Shown piece after piece: positions 1-59,508 of a stretch of 64,000 nucleotides of DNA. The notes below the pieces were generated by a model. It searched no databases. It saw only the letters and a list, made by a program, of their open reading frames with translations, and was not told where the DNA came from. A program made the translations under genes and the position numbers. The stretch's first letter is position 1. Each line of letters starts with the position of its first letter. This stretch comes from a virus (Duplodnaviria; Caudoviricetes). The DNA is taken from IMG/VR virus record IMGVR_UViG_3300035208_007155, positions 33,284 to 97,283 of that record; one strand, 5' to 3'.

Positions 1-561
1 GCTTGAACTAGAGCTTTTGCTTGAACTCTTTGAACTGGAGCTTGAGCCTGCTTCAATCACAATGAGTGGTGTGCTTGGATAACCGCCTAGTATATCAAAA
101 CTATTATTGGTAATTTTAAAGGCGTATGTACCAATACTTGTAAACTTTAAAGACCACACCCACTCTGCGTACATATTCAAAGTCATATTTACCTGAGTAG
201 CAACACTGTCCATATCATTTTGCGTTCCAAATCCAGCATAAGTACCCTCTGGTGACAATAAAGAGTTGCCTGTTCCTGTACTATCTGTGATATAGTCTGA
301 ACGCCAAACAACTACTGGTGTTGCTACTCCAATAGCATAATAATTTGGGCTGTCGATGGGTTTGGAATAATATAAACTTGGGGTAAGAAGAGAGCTTCCT
401 CCACCTGTTGCAGTTGCCAGCTTGATTCTAATTCTGTAATTAGTATTTGTAACACCAGCAGCTTGAGTGTTTTCGTCCGCAAGTGGATTCTCACCAACGC
501 CTAATGCGTGGTCATCCAAGTACCAACGATAACCAGTTTGTGTATATTTTAATCCTGCCAT
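1..561 (-). CDS. Ser-rich putative virion protein, 3'-truncated by the window edge; paralog of 574..1335
   Basis: Not in the ORF track. ATG at 561 reads MAGLKYTQTGYRWYLDDHALG... and stays open to base 1, ending in a poly-Ser linker. About 79 codons are identical to the neighbour. Confidence 0.85.
   Translation of the reverse strand, partial: MAGLKYTQTGYRWYLDDHALGVGENPLADENTQAAGVTNTNYRIRIKLATATGGGSSLLTPSLYYSKPIDSPNYYAIGVATPVVVWRSDYITDSTGTGNSLLSPEGTYAGFGTQNDMDSVATQVNMTLNMYAEWVWSLKFTSIGTYAFKITNNSFDILGGYPSTPLIVIEAGSSSSSKSSSKSSSSS
306..543. repeat. 238-bp perfect direct repeat, copy 1 (copy 2 at 1080..1317)
   Basis: Base-by-base comparison shows no mismatch; offset 774 bp. Confidence 0.95.
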
Positions 562-573
562 TGTTTTCCTGCT

Positions 574-1335
574 TTAAGAGCCCATGTCTCTGAATAATAT
601 GTGATGTATGCCTTGCATTTTGTATAATGCATTTGGTTCTTCATTTGTGCGGTAATACTTCTCAGTAGAAATATTCATTTCTATTAAAGATGGTTTTATA
701 AGTGATGTAGCCGATGAGCCTGATGATCTTGATGAGGATGAGCTTGAGCTTGATGAGCCTGCGGGAACATTGCCACTACTTGAACTTGAACTTGAACTTG
801 AACTTGAACTTGAAGGGGAAAGCTCAATCATAATGCGTGGAATTTGCGGATAGCCTCCTGCTATATCACTTCCAGCATTTGTTATTTTAAAGGCATATAA
901 GCCAATGTTTGTAAATTTTAAACACCATTCCCACTCCGTGTATTGACCATTACTCAGCGTCACCGTAGGAGCAACATTGTCTATATCATTTTGTGTTCCT
1001 TGTTGAATATAACTAAGTCCACCTGATGATAATAAAGAGCCACCCACTCCAGTACCATCAGTAATATAACTTGAAGGAGAAACAACTACTGGTGTTGCTA
1101 CTCCAATAGCATAATAATTTGGGCTGTCGATGGGTTTGGAATAATATAAACTTGGGGTAAGAAGAGAGCTTCCTCCACCTGTTGCAGTTGCCAGCTTGAT
1201 TCTAATTCTGTAATTAGTATTTGTAACACCAGCAGCTTGAGTGTTTTCGTCCGCAAGTGGATTCTCACCAACGCCTAATGCGTGGTCATCCAAGTACCAA
1301 CGATAACCAGTTTGTGTGTATACTATTCCCGCCAT
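574..1335 (-). CDS. Ser-rich putative virion/structural protein
   Basis: Beta-rich Gly/Thr/Ser N-domain plus poly-Ser tract (CTTGAA x6 at 779-814); ACTATATAGT motif upstream. Confidence 0.7.
   Translation of the reverse strand: MAGIVYTQTGYRWYLDDHALGVGENPLADENTQAAGVTNTNYRIRIKLATATGGGSSLLTPSLYYSKPIDSPNYYAIGVATPVVVSPSSYITDGTGVGGSLLSSGGLSYIQQGTQNDIDNVAPTVTLSNGQYTEWEWCLKFTNIGLYAFKITNAGSDIAGGYPQIPRIMIELSPSSSSSSSSSSSSSGNVPAGSSSSSSSSSRSSGSSATSLIKPSLIEMNISTEKYYRTNEEPNALYKMQGIHHILFRDMGS
1080..1317. repeat. 238-bp perfect direct repeat, copy 2
   Basis: Identical to 306..543. Confidence 0.95.
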
Positions 1336-8709: not shown

Positions 8710-9168
8710 ATGCAATTTAAGGAATGGCTAGCTCGAAAAACTTATTATCATGGTAGTTTTGACAAACTGCCAAATGGCACTATTTTAAGGCCCAACCCCA
8801 ATTACGTTCAGCACTGGGGCAAAAATTCATTTTATCAAATTTTAGAAAAACACCGCCCACCCAATATGATTTCTCACAAAAACGCTGTGTTTATGTGCGA
8901 CAATTCAGATGATGTAGGGTTGGCAGGCGGTGCAGAACGTTTTATTTATGCTGTTCAGCCCCTTGGACCTGTTCAAAAACATGATCTCAATTGGTCGAGC
9001 GAAATCAGCATGCTAACAGATATGTTGGCAAATGGAGAAGAAACTGATAAGGATTCTTTAAAAAGAGCAGCCGCCCATTATTGGCGTGGTGATCCACACC
9101 CCAACGAATCCGTCTGGGAATATCTCACAACCTACGCTGTTATTGTTGATTTAGTTGAAGAAGAATGA
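8710..9168 (+). CDS. Arr-like ADP-ribosyltransferase with capsid-targeting-like leader
   Basis: MQFKEWL leader; YYHGS..L..G..L.P, VFM, IYAVQPLGPV, WEYL resemble the rifampin ART fold. Confidence 0.65.
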   Translation: MQFKEWLARKTYYHGSFDKLPNGTILRPNPNYVQHWGKNSFYQILEKHRPPNMISHKNAVFMCDNSDDVGLAGGAERFIYAVQPLGPVQKHDLNWSSEISMLTDMLANGEETDKDSLKRAAAHYWRGDPHPNESVWEYLTTYAVIVDLVEEE

Positions 9169-54468: not shown

Positions 54469-55884
54469 ATGAATCGATCTTTTAAAGACTACGTTCTACT
54501 CAAAGAAGAAAAAAGCTCTGAAAAAGACTGGAAAAAAGAATTCATTTCGTTGGAAAAAGGCTTTATTCCCCCTCCAAAAATGAAACCAGTCATCGAAGCT
54601 TTTCTTAATAGTAGTGAAATTAAAGTCATTGATGATACTAGCAAAGATGTTACATTGCCCAAAAAATCCCTATTCCTTTGCGGTGGTTCAGTCCGAGATT
54701 TCCTAAAGGGCAAGTCCCCACATGAATTCCACCTCTGCACAAACGCCACCCCAGCCCAAACCGCACTCATTCTTCATAGTGCTGGTTTTAGATTTGAAGG
54801 TGGCGACCCAGGAAAACTTAAACTGACTTTTCAGCCTCGCCCCATGAAAGAAGGAGCAGTACGTAGCTGGCGAGTAGGCAATGCCGATAAAAAAGGTGGT
54901 TGCTATTCTATGATTGCCACCTACAAGGGAGAGCCATTCGAAATTTGCACCATGATGAAAGACCCCAAAACATCTCAAGTCGCCAGTGCAAAAGAATTTG
55001 TCGATAATCCCAATGATGATGCAAATGGACGTGATTTAACTATCAATGCCCTTTATATCGAATTGTCAAAACCAGATGGTGAAAACAATAAATTATTTGA
55101 TCCAACTCAAAAAGGCTGGCACGATGTAACCAATGGATTGGTGAGAGCAGTTGGTAGTGCCGAAGATCGATTCAAAGAAGACCCAATTCGTATCCTGCGT
55201 GCCATTCGATTCCACGCAAGATTTGGTAAGGGTGAAAAAATGGACCCCGATATCCGACGAGCTATGGATCGATTCAAAAATCTTGAAGGTGTATCGTTAT
55301 CCGAAGTACGGGAAGAATTTCTAAAAGGCTTGCTACACCCAGATACAGATGCAAAGAAATATATCAGCATCTATCAACAAGCCGGTTTGTTCAATAAATT
55401 ATTCCCTAATGTCACCATTCATGGAGAAGTGCCGCCTGAATTCTCAAGCAGAAAAGACAAACCACTCGCTCTGGCATGGATTTTACAAGATAATGATTTG
55501 CAAACAGTCAATAAAGTCCTCTCTGCTGAAGCTGGTTGGAATTCCCAAGATAAAAGAGCCGTTCTTTTCTTGTTGGCTTTGAAAGAATTCTCCCCGGATG
55601 ATAGACCCCAAGCCCTCAATTCTTGGAAAGGTACAGGTCTATCTAAAACACAAATTAAAGACTGGGTAGAAATGTTCAATATCACAGATGGTCGTGGTGT
55701 AAAAAGAAACCGCAGACCAGTTTGGGCTCTTCACGTCAGAACCTTTGCTGATAATGATCTCCCATTAGCTGGACCTAAAGAAGTTGGACAAGTTCCAGAT
55801 ATCCAAAAACCACAGGCTCTTAATAACCTAGAAGCAGAAAAATTCAAGAAGTTATTACCAATCAGTAAAGTCGCAAGTCTTTAA
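54469..55884 (+). CDS. Class II tRNA nucleotidyltransferase/poly(A) polymerase homolog with altered catalytic motif
   Basis: GGSVRD, RDLTINA and EDPIRILRAIRF are present, but DxD reads E-F-H; leader MNRSFKDYVLLKE. Confidence 0.88.
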   Translation: MNRSFKDYVLLKEEKSSEKDWKKEFISLEKGFIPPPKMKPVIEAFLNSSEIKVIDDTSKDVTLPKKSLFLCGGSVRDFLKGKSPHEFHLCTNATPAQTALILHSAGFRFEGGDPGKLKLTFQPRPMKEGAVRSWRVGNADKKGGCYSMIATYKGEPFEICTMMKDPKTSQVASAKEFVDNPNDDANGRDLTINALYIELSKPDGENNKLFDPTQKGWHDVTNGLVRAVGSAEDRFKEDPIRILRAIRFHARFGKGEKMDPDIRRAMDRFKNLEGVSLSEVREEFLKGLLHPDTDAKKYISIYQQAGLFNKLFPNVTIHGEVPPEFSSRKDKPLALAWILQDNDLQTVNKVLSAEAGWNSQDKRAVLFLLALKEFSPDDRPQALNSWKGTGLSKTQIKDWVEMFNITDGRGVKRNRRPVWALHVRTFADNDLPLAGPKEVGQVPDIQKPQALNNLEAEKFKKLLPISKVASL

Positions 55885-55944
55885 TTGATAAGTATTTAGA
55901 AACAAAGCAAATATTTTTTGTTGTTATTATGCTCTAAATACTGC

Positions 55945-56268
55945 GTGAAAAACTTTCATCAAGTATCCAATGTGTTAAAGAAACATTTTCCCAACTACAA
56001 GGTAAGCATCAGAAGAGTTGTTGTTCCACCTGATATTGCTGGCGAATGTTGCTTGTTGCCCACACGCAAAAAATGCAAACAATTCATGATAAAAATAGAT
56101 CACAGTCTAGATGAAGACGCAGCTATTTTAATCCTTTTGCATGAGTGGTCTCACATTCTTTCTTGGCAGGCAAGAGGAGATGACCACGGAATTGAATGGG
56201 GCAAAGCATATAGTCGCATTTATCGGGTGTATCTAAAAGATTGGATTGAAAAAGAAAATCAGAACTAA
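55945..56268 (+). CDS. Small zincin metallopeptidase (SprT-like)
   Basis: LLHEWSH...DDHGIEW; likely GTG start after CTAAATA. Confidence 0.7.
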   Translation: MKNFHQVSNVLKKHFPNYKVSIRRVVVPPDIAGECCLLPTRKKCKQFMIKIDHSLDEDAAILILLHEWSHILSWQARGDDHGIEWGKAYSRIYRVYLKDWIEKENQN

Positions 56269-56282
56269 ACTCTTTTGATACT

Positions 56283-57053
56283 ATGGATTACTTTGTTACC
56301 GTTGTGCCCTCCTATCAACACTTTTGGCAAGTTGAACTGCTGATCGAAAGCTTCAAAATGCTAAAAATGCAAGATAGGCTGCTTGTGGCCATCGTTGGTG
56401 CCCCAACCTCATTGCCCACCAATCTCCACAACCACTCCAGAAAAATATTTTGCTCGGATTTTAATGAATCTTCTGGACTCAATTATCCACCTATCAATAA
56501 AATAGCTTGCCTTAGAACCGCTCTGCATGCTTTGGACTCTAACTTCACATTGCTGCATACAGATATGGTAATGGTTGGACCTGTACCCAATGTCAAACAA
56601 AACATCTGCTTTACCCCATCTCCACCACCACAAAAAGTAGTTGATATGCTTCAATTACCATCTGATTCTATATGGGTATCCTTCGATGGAGCAACTATTT
56701 TTAATCAAGTGCCAACCATATTTTTTGACAACGTTTTGGAAGCAACCAAAATCCTAATAGACATGTATGGAACAGAATGGCCCGCAAGTCTTGCCGCATG
56801 GAATTCCATCACGCATCAACACAATCTTTCCATTCTTGGTGCTGCTATAGAATCTCCACTAACTCAAACCTCTTCTGCTCTGCTGCCTTTTGTCCACTAC
56901 AAAGCAGGATTGCCACCCTACTTCAGCAAACATGCCTACAATCCTGAGTTTCAAATCATCAATCCTTATAACGCCTTCATAGATCACAACCCCAATTTCT
57001 GCACCAATCACGTTCGAAACGTAATCTTAGCCTACCAAAAAAACACAACTTGA
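56283..57053 (+). CDS. GT-A glycosyltransferase-like protein resembling peptide O-glycosyltransferases (GT95/GT96)
   Basis: WQVELLIESF, NYPPINK, LLHTDMV, FVHY. Confidence 0.5.
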   Translation: MDYFVTVVPSYQHFWQVELLIESFKMLKMQDRLLVAIVGAPTSLPTNLHNHSRKIFCSDFNESSGLNYPPINKIACLRTALHALDSNFTLLHTDMVMVGPVPNVKQNICFTPSPPPQKVVDMLQLPSDSIWVSFDGATIFNQVPTIFFDNVLEATKILIDMYGTEWPASLAAWNSITHQHNLSILGAAIESPLTQTSSALLPFVHYKAGLPPYFSKHAYNPEFQIINPYNAFIDHNPNFCTNHVRNVILAYQKNTT

Positions 57054-57134: not shown

Positions 57135-57389
57135 ATGGCATGTGATTGTCAAGACATAGACTTTTTGCCAAACAACGAGTTGATAAAAAAATTATTGGAA
57201 CGTACCACCTTTTTGGGTGTGGTCATTTCCTCAGAAGATGATCCCCATAACACCGAACATAAAAATTTCTCTGTGTCCTTCAACAGCCAATTAGACACCA
57301 AAGAAGTCTCCCAAATCCTGCTTTGGGCCGCAAATGCACTGCTTGAAACCGCAAATAGTGATTTACAACCACCAAATTCTGGAGTATAA
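57135..57389 (+). CDS. Hypothetical protein
   Basis: Likely start MACDCQ with AAGGA upstream. Confidence 0.55.
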   Translation: MACDCQDIDFLPNNELIKKLLERTTFLGVVISSEDDPHNTEHKNFSVSFNSQLDTKEVSQILLWAANALLETANSDLQPPNSGV

Positions 57390-57396
57390 TAGAGGA

Positions 57397-57942
57397 ATGA
57401 TAAGTTGCGACGAAAATGAATGCGAATACTTTGGACAACCCACCAATGGCAAACTCTTGGTTTTGCCAAAGTCTGCTGCTAGTAATTTCACCTACGATAA
57501 GCCGTGGGCTTGTATCTCTATTGGCTGTGAACCGGGTGATTGGCCTAAAATCAACAAGTGCCAACAAGTTGATCTTCTTCAAATCGCTTTTGCCGATCTT
57601 GATAGACCACTCAATCAAGAAGAGTCAACTGATTATGCCGAAAGTCACAAAAGCCACAAGCTGAACCCAATTCTATTCACTCCCGAACACGCTCAGCAAA
57701 TTTGGGATTTTGTAGAAAAAAATTGGGATAAAGTTGAACTCCTTATGGTGCATTGCCTTGCAGGTGCTTCTCGCTCTCCAGCAGTTGCAGCCGCTATTGC
57801 ATTAAAAAAATATGAAAATGACAATCTGTATTTTCAACTCTATTGCCCAAATCGATTAGTCTATAGAACACTCTTGGAAACAACAGGACTGTCTCTTAAG
57901 CCACATCCCGTGGTCAAAATAGCAAATAAAGAACTGTTCTAA
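57397..57942 (+). CDS. Protein tyrosine/dual-specificity phosphatase family
   Basis: VHCLAGASRS (CX5R), FADLD, PN..VY; GAGGA RBS. Confidence 0.88.
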   Translation: MISCDENECEYFGQPTNGKLLVLPKSAASNFTYDKPWACISIGCEPGDWPKINKCQQVDLLQIAFADLDRPLNQEESTDYAESHKSHKLNPILFTPEHAQQIWDFVEKNWDKVELLMVHCLAGASRSPAVAAAIALKKYENDNLYFQLYCPNRLVYRTLLETTGLSLKPHPVVKIANKELF

Positions 57943-57956
57943 AACATATATAAAGT

Positions 57957-58187
57957 ATGACATGCTTTTCAGCAACAGAATTTGATGACAGTTTTTATGT
58001 TTGCATTGCAGTAGCACCCGTCGTTACAGTAAAAACACCCGCTATTTGTCGGGCGGAACAAAAGTTTTATTGCAGCACCTATAGCAGATGTACCAAGTCC
58101 CTTCTGATAAATAATGCCTACGTGCCCGCCATCACAGTTTGTCAAATGGACTCGTTGTATGCACAATATCTCAAAAGCATAAATTAA
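57957..58187 (+). CDS. Small Cys-rich protein
   Basis: CATATATAA directly upstream; fills the gap. Confidence 0.5.
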   Translation: MTCFSATEFDDSFYVCIAVAPVVTVKTPAICRAEQKFYCSTYSRCTKSLLINNAYVPAITVCQMDSLYAQYLKSIN

Positions 58188-59002
58188 AGTAAAGCCATCC
58201 GTAAGGCTTGTTCATCTTTAATTACATAATTTCCATCCAATGCATACTTTACACCACGTTGACAATAACGAAAGAAAATAGAATCATATAGCCATTCATT
58301 GGGCTCGGCTACATGTATCTTTATTTTTCGACTGACACCATCTGCGTTCTTCTTCAAACAGCCTTGAATATCACGCACTAATAATTCATATAAGCTCAAG
58401 TCTACTGCCCGCCAACTCATCCAGCCAAATGCAAACAACCCAGTAGGATATTGCCACGGTGGAGTTATTAATGGTCTGCCCAAAATGACATAGACTTCAT
58501 CACAACCAGCATCAATACATTGTTGTAGTGGTGCCATCTGCCGAGCACCAGCATCTACCCACCCATTTCTGTCATGCACAATTCCAGGTATTGCCACTGC
58601 ACCTAGTGCAGCGTCGGCAAATTCTTCTCTGGAAACTTTTGTGCTCCATATGTACTCAATTTCCCCGCTCACAATATTTAGTCTTGTGACTACCCCTGTG
58701 CAAAATGGACCCTGTTGCACAATTTTGCCAACCACTTTTTCAGCAGGCTTCTCATTGAATATTCCACGATTCCATAAAAAATTCCAATTAAAACCAAATA
58801 AGCTAAGAATGGTGGTAACACCATTCCACATATCAACAAGGCCCTGCGGACCAGCGTATGCATAGCCTGTCGAACATGCAGAACCAGATGATGCCCCCAT
58901 GACAAAATCAGCCTTGATTCCATGCTTTTGATATAAATCTAACGCTATTCCAGCTTGAATCGCTCCCCTAGAGCCGTCCCCAGAAAAACAAAAACCTATC
59001 AT
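58184..59002 (-). CDS. Patatin-like phospholipase
   Basis: SGDGSRG, GASSG nucleophile, WVDAG. Confidence 0.85.
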   Translation of the reverse strand: MIGFCFSGDGSRGAIQAGIALDLYQKHGIKADFVMGASSGSACSTGYAYAGPQGLVDMWNGVTTILSLFGFNWNFLWNRGIFNEKPAEKVVGKIVQQGPFCTGVVTRLNIVSGEIEYIWSTKVSREEFADAALGAVAIPGIVHDRNGWVDAGARQMAPLQQCIDAGCDEVYVILGRPLITPPWQYPTGLFAFGWMSWRAVDLSLYELLVRDIQGCLKKNADGVSRKIKIHVAEPNEWLYDSIFFRYCQRGVKYALDGNYVIKDEQALRMALL

Positions 59003-59508
59003 TTTTTATTCCTTTTAGTTTGCCAATCTTTAATAGATTTAAGTGGTAATACAAACATCAATATATTTAATGTCAAATTATCACTAATCAACCATAATGT
59101 TGTGAGTTCCATCGCCACTATCAATGCCACAATTGTATAATAAGGCACATAAAGACATAAAGTATAACCAGCTATTACACACAAAATATCACACACTGAA
59201 TTTAAGACGGTATCACCAGTGTAGTCTGTTGATGATGTCTTAGTTCTGTAATGATTGATAACAAAAGGTGAATTCTCCATCATCTCCCAAATGGCCTCTA
59301 ATAATACGGCTATCCACAATTGACCACACCAAAAAAACACAAAACCATGTATGATGTGCGAAGGAGAATACCAATCAAACATCTGTCTGGAAGATTCTTC
59401 CATGTTTCCCCATATTTTTATCTTCTCTGGGAAAATCCTCCTCCCAAATAATAACTCAACCGAAACCATTACCACTAATATAATTGCTATTATCGATGCT
59501 GCTGCCAT
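58999..59508 (-). CDS. DUF2585-like membrane protein
   Basis: DWYSPSHIIHG, WEMMENSP, YTGDTVLNSVCD, DNLTLNI. Confidence 0.8.
   Translation of the reverse strand: MAAASIIAIILVVMVSVELLFGRRIFPEKIKIWGNMEESSRQMFDWYSPSHIIHGFVFFWCGQLWIAVLLEAIWEMMENSPFVINHYRTKTSSTDYTGDTVLNSVCDILCVIAGYTLCLYVPYYTIVALIVAMELTTLWLISDNLTLNILMFVLPLKSIKDWQTKRNKK

Follow-up and report, generated by a model that had tools for sequence, protein, structure and literature searches.

CCA-adding enzymes, those of phages included, are usually viewed as catalytic without exception and as serving in housekeeping or repair, and phage CCA-adding enzymes have been described as tRNA repair enzymes (PMC7824862). Our full-text literature searches returned phage CCA-adding enzymes only in this role, and catalytically degenerate phage paralogs were not described in them. 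Here we analyze a gene at positions 54469-55884 (+) of a 64,000-nucleotide (nt) window of phage DNA (G000:C242:33284-97283; all window positions below count from its first letter), which encodes a long-form class II tRNA nucleotidyltransferase homolog of 471 amino acids (aa) with a degenerate active site. Loss of the catalytic carboxylates with retention of the nucleotidyltransferase (NTase) fold for ligand, RNA or protein binding is familiar from MiD51, NF45/NF90 and the N-terminal domain of TUT4/7. These are unrelated eukaryotic subfamilies, and to our knowledge none of them is a derivative of a CCA-adding enzyme or a phage protein.

The closest described systems are the class II CCA-adding enzymes, represented by human TRNT1 (4X4W/8CBM) and the G. 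stearothermophilus enzyme (1MIV), and bacterial poly(A) polymerase I (PAP I; 3AQK-N), with which the phage protein shares the PF01743 head and the four-domain fold. It differs from them in having E86 and H88 for DxD, G187 for the first Arg of RRD, and M163, and in adding an N-terminal leader plus extension of ~60 aa and a head insertion of ~40 aa. Canonical long-form enzymes of huge phages (LR756511 and the 572-kb IMG/VR record UViG_3300015615_000629) have the same locus, leader, N-terminal extension and insertion, with 46-51% identity to the variant for the IMG/VR loci and a more distant 33% for LR756511. However, they keep all catalytic residues and are the sole PolyA_pol gene in their record, whereas the degenerate variant shares its genome with a canonical cca gene of the short form. 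The CC-adding enzymes from the split CC/A systems of some bacteria likewise have the first Arg of RRD replaced (QRD) and the B/A element weakened (PMC7947759), but they keep DxD and are active polymerases, whereas the phage protein has lost DxD.

The reading frame (471 aa plus stop) has no internal stop codons, and its product is by homology a member of the class II tRNA nucleotidyltransferase/PolyA_pol superfamily, matching PF01743 (PolyA_pol head domain) at 58.6 bits against a curated cut-off of 23 (E 1.1e-15) and phrog_2244, the phage tRNA nucleotidyltransferase family, at E 2e-29. An AlphaFold2 (AF2) model built from a 60-sequence alignment reached a mean predicted local distance difference test score (pLDDT) of 88.7, and its best Foldseek match was the human mitochondrial CCA-adding enzyme 4x4w (E 2.4e-13, ~470 columns). 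Structures 4x4w, 8cbm, 6q52 and 1miv were matched over 436-476 columns at E values of 1e-11 to 1e-13, and all of the top structural matches were CCA-adding enzymes or poly(A) polymerases. The protein is predicted from this model to have a complete class II head-neck-body-tail fold, in keeping with an earlier note on this DNA, which had described the frame outside the altered motifs as intact. The body and tail domains (residues 301-471; 55369-55881, +), which form the tRNA-binding part of class II enzymes, were assigned from the fold match to full-length CCA-adding enzymes.

Motif roles in CCA-adding enzymes have been described previously (PMC3925840, PMC11784652, PMC7947759). Motif A, GGSVRDFLKGKSPHEFHLCT, occupies residues 72-91 (54682-54741, +), and the codons CAT GAA TTC CAC at 54721-54732 encode H85-E86-F87-H88. 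The segment GGSVRDFLKGKSPHEFHLCTNATP was aligned by HMMER across motif A to the solved human enzyme and to E. coli PAP, with PHEFHLCT opposite PQDIDFAT (human) and PKDFDVTT (E. coli), such that the two-carboxylate DxD of active CCA-adding enzymes reads E86-x-H88 (codons 54724-54732). In the strand FEICTMMKD (residues 157-165; 54937-54963, +), the third catalytic carboxylate is present as E158, with FEICT aligned to FEITT/FEIAT, while A160 is replaced by Cys; in the B/A element, Met stands in place of the invariant R163 and D165 is kept. Motif B, DDANGRDLTINA (residues 183-194; 55015-55050, +), aligns to D/E-A-x-RRD-x-T-I-N, and its DDANGRD stretch at 55015-55035 has Gly for the first Arg, giving G187-R188-D189. 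Motif D, EDPIRILRAIRF (residues 237-248; 55177-55212, +), is the amino-acid template that recognizes C and A (PMC11784652), and it is intact, with EDPIR at 55177-55191 supplying E237, D238 and R241 of EDxxR. The GGxVRD motif, the third carboxylate, the xRD-x-x-x-N of motif B and EDxxR are all present in the protein. The combination does not correspond to that of a CC-adding enzyme, in which an altered RRD and a lost B/A element and flexible loop accompany a retained DxD.

The ExH reading of motif A was the central observation of the earlier note, and it is upheld by the codons, by the HMMER alignment and by relatives of the protein. The same note had taken DDANGRD for an altered EDxxRRD; the loss of the first Arg of RRD stands, but the motif concerned is motif B, and the true EDxxR is unaltered. 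To place these residues among relatives, a search of 5.8 billion proteins gave 1,628 matches at E <= 1e-5, the best 120 of which were aligned; the residue counts below refer to this alignment, in which 84 sequences are canonical and 32, the query included, fall in a degenerate clade. The clade is monophyletic (support of 99 in the Shimodaira-Hasegawa-like approximate likelihood ratio test, SH-aLRT), and its members are metagenomic and 45-97% identical to the query. D86, D88, E/D158, A160, R163, D165 and R187 are invariant in the canonical relatives (84/84). Within the clade, position 88 is His in 26 of 32 members, Asn in five and Glu in one, and close homologs lack DxD, contrary to the outcome that the earlier note had named as refuting its view; position 86 is Asp in 18 and Asp or Glu in 22. 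R187 is kept in no member (G in 22, T in six, C in three and N in one), and R163 and D165 are kept in 27 and 20 members, respectively. A carboxylate is found at position 158 or 160 in all 32. Further changes line the pocket, namely V147 to S (24/32), A160 to E, C or S, and A166 to P (26/32).

Other positions are conserved. G72-G73, R76-D77, D184, R188-D189 and N193 are invariant in the clade, with R188, D189 and N193 invariant in canonical relatives and clade alike, and motif D is conserved at E237 (29/32), D238 (31/32), R241 (31/32) and R244 (32/32). One protein from another sample, P0001, is 97% identical to the query and has the same catalytic-site residues; given this and the clade-wide pattern, the replacements do not stem from sequencing error or private decay. 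A metagenomic relative within the clade, P0126, keeps DxD although R187, R163, D165 and E237 are already gone. If this protein is an intermediate, as it may be, motif B and the B/A element would have decayed before motif A.

The gene is under strong purifying selection and is not decaying, which settles a check that the earlier note had proposed. By the Nei-Gojobori method, with the closest relative for which DNA was available (78% aa identity) as reference, the ratio of nonsynonymous to synonymous substitution rates (dN/dS) was 0.10 for the gene, 0.066 for the head domain and 0.144 for the rest, all values being approximate as dS is >= 1.5. Pairwise identity in the clade versus canonical relatives was 0.62-0.70 versus 0.78-0.79 for the head and 0.56 versus 0.66 for the neck, and 0.69 versus 0.64 for the N-terminal extension, 0.57 versus 0.56 for the body and 0.51 versus 0.36 for the tail. 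This comparison points to a relaxation of constraint in the head and neck only, that is, in the catalytic core, and not in the N-terminal extension, body or tail.

The N-terminal extension itself (residues 19-60; 54523-54648, +) is a small alpha/beta unit, confidently modeled by AF2, which is highly conserved throughout the long-form family, at least as much as the catalytic core, with W21, K23, G31, F32, P34, P35, P40, A44 and F45 nearly invariant. The head-domain insertion of ~40 aa (residues 108-146; 54790-54906, +) is shared by long-form enzymes. Both the extension (KDWKKEF...GFIPP...) and the insertion are common to the long-form enzymes and missing from cellular and short-form phage enzymes.

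Degeneration of motif A is also found beyond the clade. Scoring the query against 1.84 billion cluster representatives gave 47 clusters at E <= 1e-30, and among ~45 aligned representatives motif A is degenerate in 16, reading DxH, ExH, NxN, NxD, KxE, GxE, KxN or TxD. Most of these 16 also lack R187, and deeper lineages lose R241 of the template as well. On a tree of 50%-identity representatives, degenerate motif A required nine changes, at least seven of which are forced by well-supported branches, compared with 18.9 in shuffles. The main variant clade and a second small group (P0057, P0075, P0067, P0070) cluster together in this tree, and their joint monophyly gave p = 0.083 in the approximately unbiased (AU) test on a 53-row subset; a single origin for the two is neither rejected nor demonstrated by these alignments. 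The heterogeneous and recurrent replacements (H, N, E, S, C; NxN, KxE, GxE) favor a loss of catalysis with some other function kept over the gain of one new chemistry.

The gene is the positional ortholog of the canonical long-form CCA-adding enzyme gene. Genes for 440-aa, 170-aa and 204-aa proteins and the tape-measure gene adjoin the long-form gene at 25 IMG/VR loci and in LR756511, whether the enzyme is canonical or degenerate, and the variant therefore diverged in place. A second, canonical cca gene, for which the earlier note had suggested a search, is present on the adjoining contig C200 (C200:175100-176317, -), where motif inspection found DFD, RRD and EDxxR of the short form. The 3′ end of C200 (340 kb, an IMG/VR viral contig in its own right) and the 5′ end of C242 share an overlap of exactly 127 nt, and the two contigs have a tetranucleotide correlation of 0.987. 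The assembly, G000, is a mixed bin of a ~69% GC bacterium and ~1.08 Mb of low-GC contigs, and its three other PolyA_pol matches all lie on high-GC bacterial contigs. A canonical second gene, of the HD-domain type, is also present in the one other large genome (436 kb) that carries the variant. By comparison, a second gene was found in none of seven IMG/VR records with a canonical long form, including the complete 572-kb genome, these records being few and mostly fragments, and LR756511 likewise has a single match. An IMG/VR search for relatives of the short-form cca gene returned only fragments or unrelated phages and added no co-occurrence data. C200 also carries 65 tRNA genes (within C200:13209-334202), 63 of which end in N73-C74-T with no encoded CCA, and the tRNAs from these 63 genes would therefore need to have CCA (or CA) added. 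The C-T that is conserved behind the discriminator could signal 3′ processing.

The protein begins with a leader, MNRSFKDYVLLKE (residues 1-13; 54469-54507, +), that resembles the capsid-targeting sequence (CTS) of T4 and ends in L11-K12-E13; residues 1-18 are of low confidence in the AF2 model and lie outside the fold. The T4 protease gp21 cleaves at (L/I)xE, a site that the leader contains. Across the family, the N-terminal consensus SFKDFVLLKE is found in 91 of 125 relatives, of which 49 have L or I at P3, 84 have K or R at P2 and 69 have E at P1. The likeness to the T4 internal proteins and Alt, whose CTS is MKTYQEFIAE (PMC3012670), lies in an aromatic-x-acidic-aromatic-aliphatic leader followed by (L/I)xE and in the presence of gp21- and gp23-type genes. 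The phage leader differs in being longer (FKDYVLLKE) and in standing on ~55 genes, enzymes included. Upstream of the window, a gp23-type capsid protein (C242:18209-19447; PF07068, E 7.6e-86) and a gp21-type prohead protease (C242:20708-21184; PF03420, E 5.9e-25) are encoded in the same phage, as would be needed for T4-type CTS cargo.

We defined a loose tag motif as M, 0-5 residues, then aromatic-x-x-aromatic-aliphatic. C200 has this motif at the start of 41 of its 489 genes, and C242 at the start of 15 of its 99 (8-15%). The background levels are 1.4% for internal Met codons, ~1.5% for the remaining low-GC contigs and 0.8% for the contigs of the host. In all, ~55 genes with no other relationship to one another open with a CTS-like leader (examples are MKTFQQFLE, MNFKQWIE and MEFRNFLE); the canonical cca paralog is among them, and most of the tagged proteins have no Pfam family. 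The suggestion of a packaging tag in the earlier note is supported indirectly by the N-terminal enrichment, the LxE site and the gp21- and gp23-type genes, but the tag is not special to the variant, since it is also found on canonical relatives and on the canonical paralog. By analogy with T4, the 471-aa protein is possibly packaged into virions.

Taken together, we favor, with a probability of roughly 55%, the reading that the protein is a non-polymerizing derivative that would dock tRNA acceptor ends and/or C/A nucleotides, with polymerization left to the canonical paralog, and that it may be injected after loading into the head. Since a canonical copy is encoded elsewhere in the phage, the degenerate copy would most likely bind tRNA ends without extending them. 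Template-independent polymerization would have been lost, leaving the protein non-catalytic or at most feebly catalytic, and the remodeled pocket would dock a tRNA acceptor end or hold a C or A nucleotide without extension. The protein could thereby serve as a cap or escort for tRNA 3′ ends, for instance where host toxins target the CCA end. The CTS-like leader with its L-K-E site would direct the protein into the prohead and be cleaved off there by the gp21-type protease, and delivery of the protein would then accompany that of the DNA. The earlier proposal of a pseudoenzyme or an enzyme of altered chemistry fits a gene that is not decaying, with clade-conserved changes, a dN/dS of ~0.1 and close homologs that lack DxD; the particular roles that it named, shielding from tRNA toxins and service as a head component, are candidates.

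Several observations weigh against this reading. H88 in 26 of 32 clade members, a carboxylate at 158/160 in all 32 and D/E86 in most are features that a metal site could use, and the protein may have a site for a single metal or for a transition metal. In CC-adding enzymes the natural motif is QRD rather than RRD (PMC7947759), and loss of R187 alone would therefore not be fatal; with the nucleoside triphosphate (NTP) template intact, CTP or ATP could still be used. Binding of tRNA is suggested by fold and conservation only, the co-occurrence with a second cca gene comprises two variant genomes only, with most comparison records being fragments, and packaging is proposed from the resemblance of a leader that ~55 genes carry.

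The best-surviving alternative, which we regard as a minority possibility, is a working nucleotidyltransferase with a remodeled site (E/D86, H88, E158, C/E160), perhaps using Mn2+, Co2+ or Zn2+ and perhaps adding CC or A only. It would account for the retention of H88 (26/32), of a carboxylate at 158 or 160 in every member and of D/E86 (22/32), for the intact EDxxR and R188-D189, and for the head domain having the lowest dN/dS (0.066). The first Arg of RRD is also missing in CC-adding enzymes (PMC7947759), and a restricted specificity would suit phage tRNA genes that encode C74 but not C75-A76. However, the second Asp of DxD ligates both metals in every characterized Pol-beta-type NTase and is invariant in the 84 canonical kin, and lineages with NxN, KxS, KxE or GxE cannot form such a site, yet persist. 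Moreover, the clade shows relaxation of the B/A element, by which the 3′ end is positioned, and the same genome encodes a canonical enzyme.

An unlikely alternative is that tRNA plays no part and that the protein serves only in structure or in the virion, or as partner or regulator of another protein, with the N-terminal extension and the head insertion carrying the selected function. Conservation of the extension (residues 19-60) at or above the level of the catalytic core, the constant position by the tail module, the CTS-like leader and the decay of the nucleotide template in deeper lineages would all agree with such a role. In the clade, however, the template and R188-D189-N193-R244 are 91-100% conserved, and the body and tail are constrained as in active kin, which would be unexpected if RNA or nucleotide binding were irrelevant.

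It is also conceivable, though decidedly doubtful, that the protein is a new tRNA-3′-end enzyme built on H88, polar residues at 147 and 160 and the C/A template, which might remove a toxin-installed 3′-pyrophosphate or extra nucleotides and which, delivered with the DNA through its CTS, would act as an injected repair or protection factor. New chemistry at the tRNA 3′ end through H88 and its polar neighbors (S147, C/E160), whether it trims, deacylates or takes off a 3′ modification that a toxin has added, is a long shot. The pocket-lining changes do co-occur and are conserved in the clade (V147 to S, A160 to E/C/S, A166 to P, D88 to H), with the template residues intact. Yet no candidate catalytic residue is invariant, as H88 is N or E in six members, S147 is G or A in eight and position 160 varies widely; no common constellation unites the degenerate lineages in the rest of the family, and no hydrolase appeared among the structural matches. 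Only the missing Asp residues speak for an error of assembly or sequencing or for a recent pseudogene, and these readings can be dismissed in view of the independent 97%-identical protein, 32 intact, full-length clade members, a dN/dS of 0.10 and an open frame.

The phage of C200 and C242 is a huge T4-like phage of at least 437 kb and probably 0.5-0.6 Mb in total, with its closest database phages being LR756511, LR745206 and LR756502 (595-642 kb). Contigs C226, C102, C63, C179 and C184 are also chained via 127-nt overlaps (C226 with a tetranucleotide correlation of 0.98 to C200), and the low-GC contigs C137, C44 and C140, which show no tag enrichment, may be separate entities. Before the window, the head genes at C242:18143-22983 follow the T4 order, with a candidate portal of 572 aa, the gp21-type protease, a candidate scaffold of 307 aa and the gp23-type capsid protein; protease and capsid are identified by family match, and portal and scaffold are guesses from position alone. 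From its gene content, the half-megabase phage appears to use T4-type head assembly. The tail module within the window includes a 2,406-aa tape measure protein and a baseplate wedge protein, and two adjacent paralogs at 1-561 (-) and 574-1335 (-), which have near-identical N-termini, MAG(L/I)(K/V)YTQTGYRWYLDDHALGVGENPLADENTQAAGV, are a tandem duplication, possibly of tail-fibre-like proteins.

Tagged genes in the window start at 8710, 10517 (-), 51393 (-), 51707 (-), 53283 (-), 53780, 60185 (-), 61330 (-), 61365, 62417, 63228 (-) and 63911 (-), and tagged genes on C200 encode a Tpt1/KptA-like RNA 2′-phosphotransferase (C200:172571-173377), a D12 adenine methyltransferase (C200:217902-218693) and, by a weak match, a PARP/ART-like protein (C200:260381-261373). 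Downstream of the variant gene lie genes for a 116-aa SprT-like protein with HEWSH (55918-56268, weak PF10263 match) and a 256-aa protein (56283-57053), both of which recur beside long-form cca genes in many related phages. They are followed by a 202-aa protein with the Cys-phosphatase motif VHCLAGASRS (57334-57942, weak DSPc match), a patatin-like phospholipase (58184-59002) and a DUF2585 protein (58999-59508). No conserved neighbor specific to the variant was found, as the SprT-like and 256-aa genes adjoin canonical forms too. Pfam and PHROGs returned nothing for the upstream 210-aa tagged open reading frame or for the conserved 440-, 170- and 204-aa neighbors, and promoter and terminator signals around 54469-55884 were no better than in shuffles.

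In a broad family of uncultivated huge phages, the catalytic carboxylates of this enzyme have been lost at least seven times while the protein stays intact, syntenic and under purifying selection. Such a pattern of loss and retention implies a second selected function of the scaffold, which may be tRNA-end binding, a virion role or counter-defense. The case also bears on the question of whether ~55 proteins of this roughly half-megabase phage are cargo candidates marked by a capsid-targeting leader of the T4 type, and the presence of a degenerate copy and a predicted-active enzyme in one phage bears on how phages may manipulate tRNA 3′ ends.

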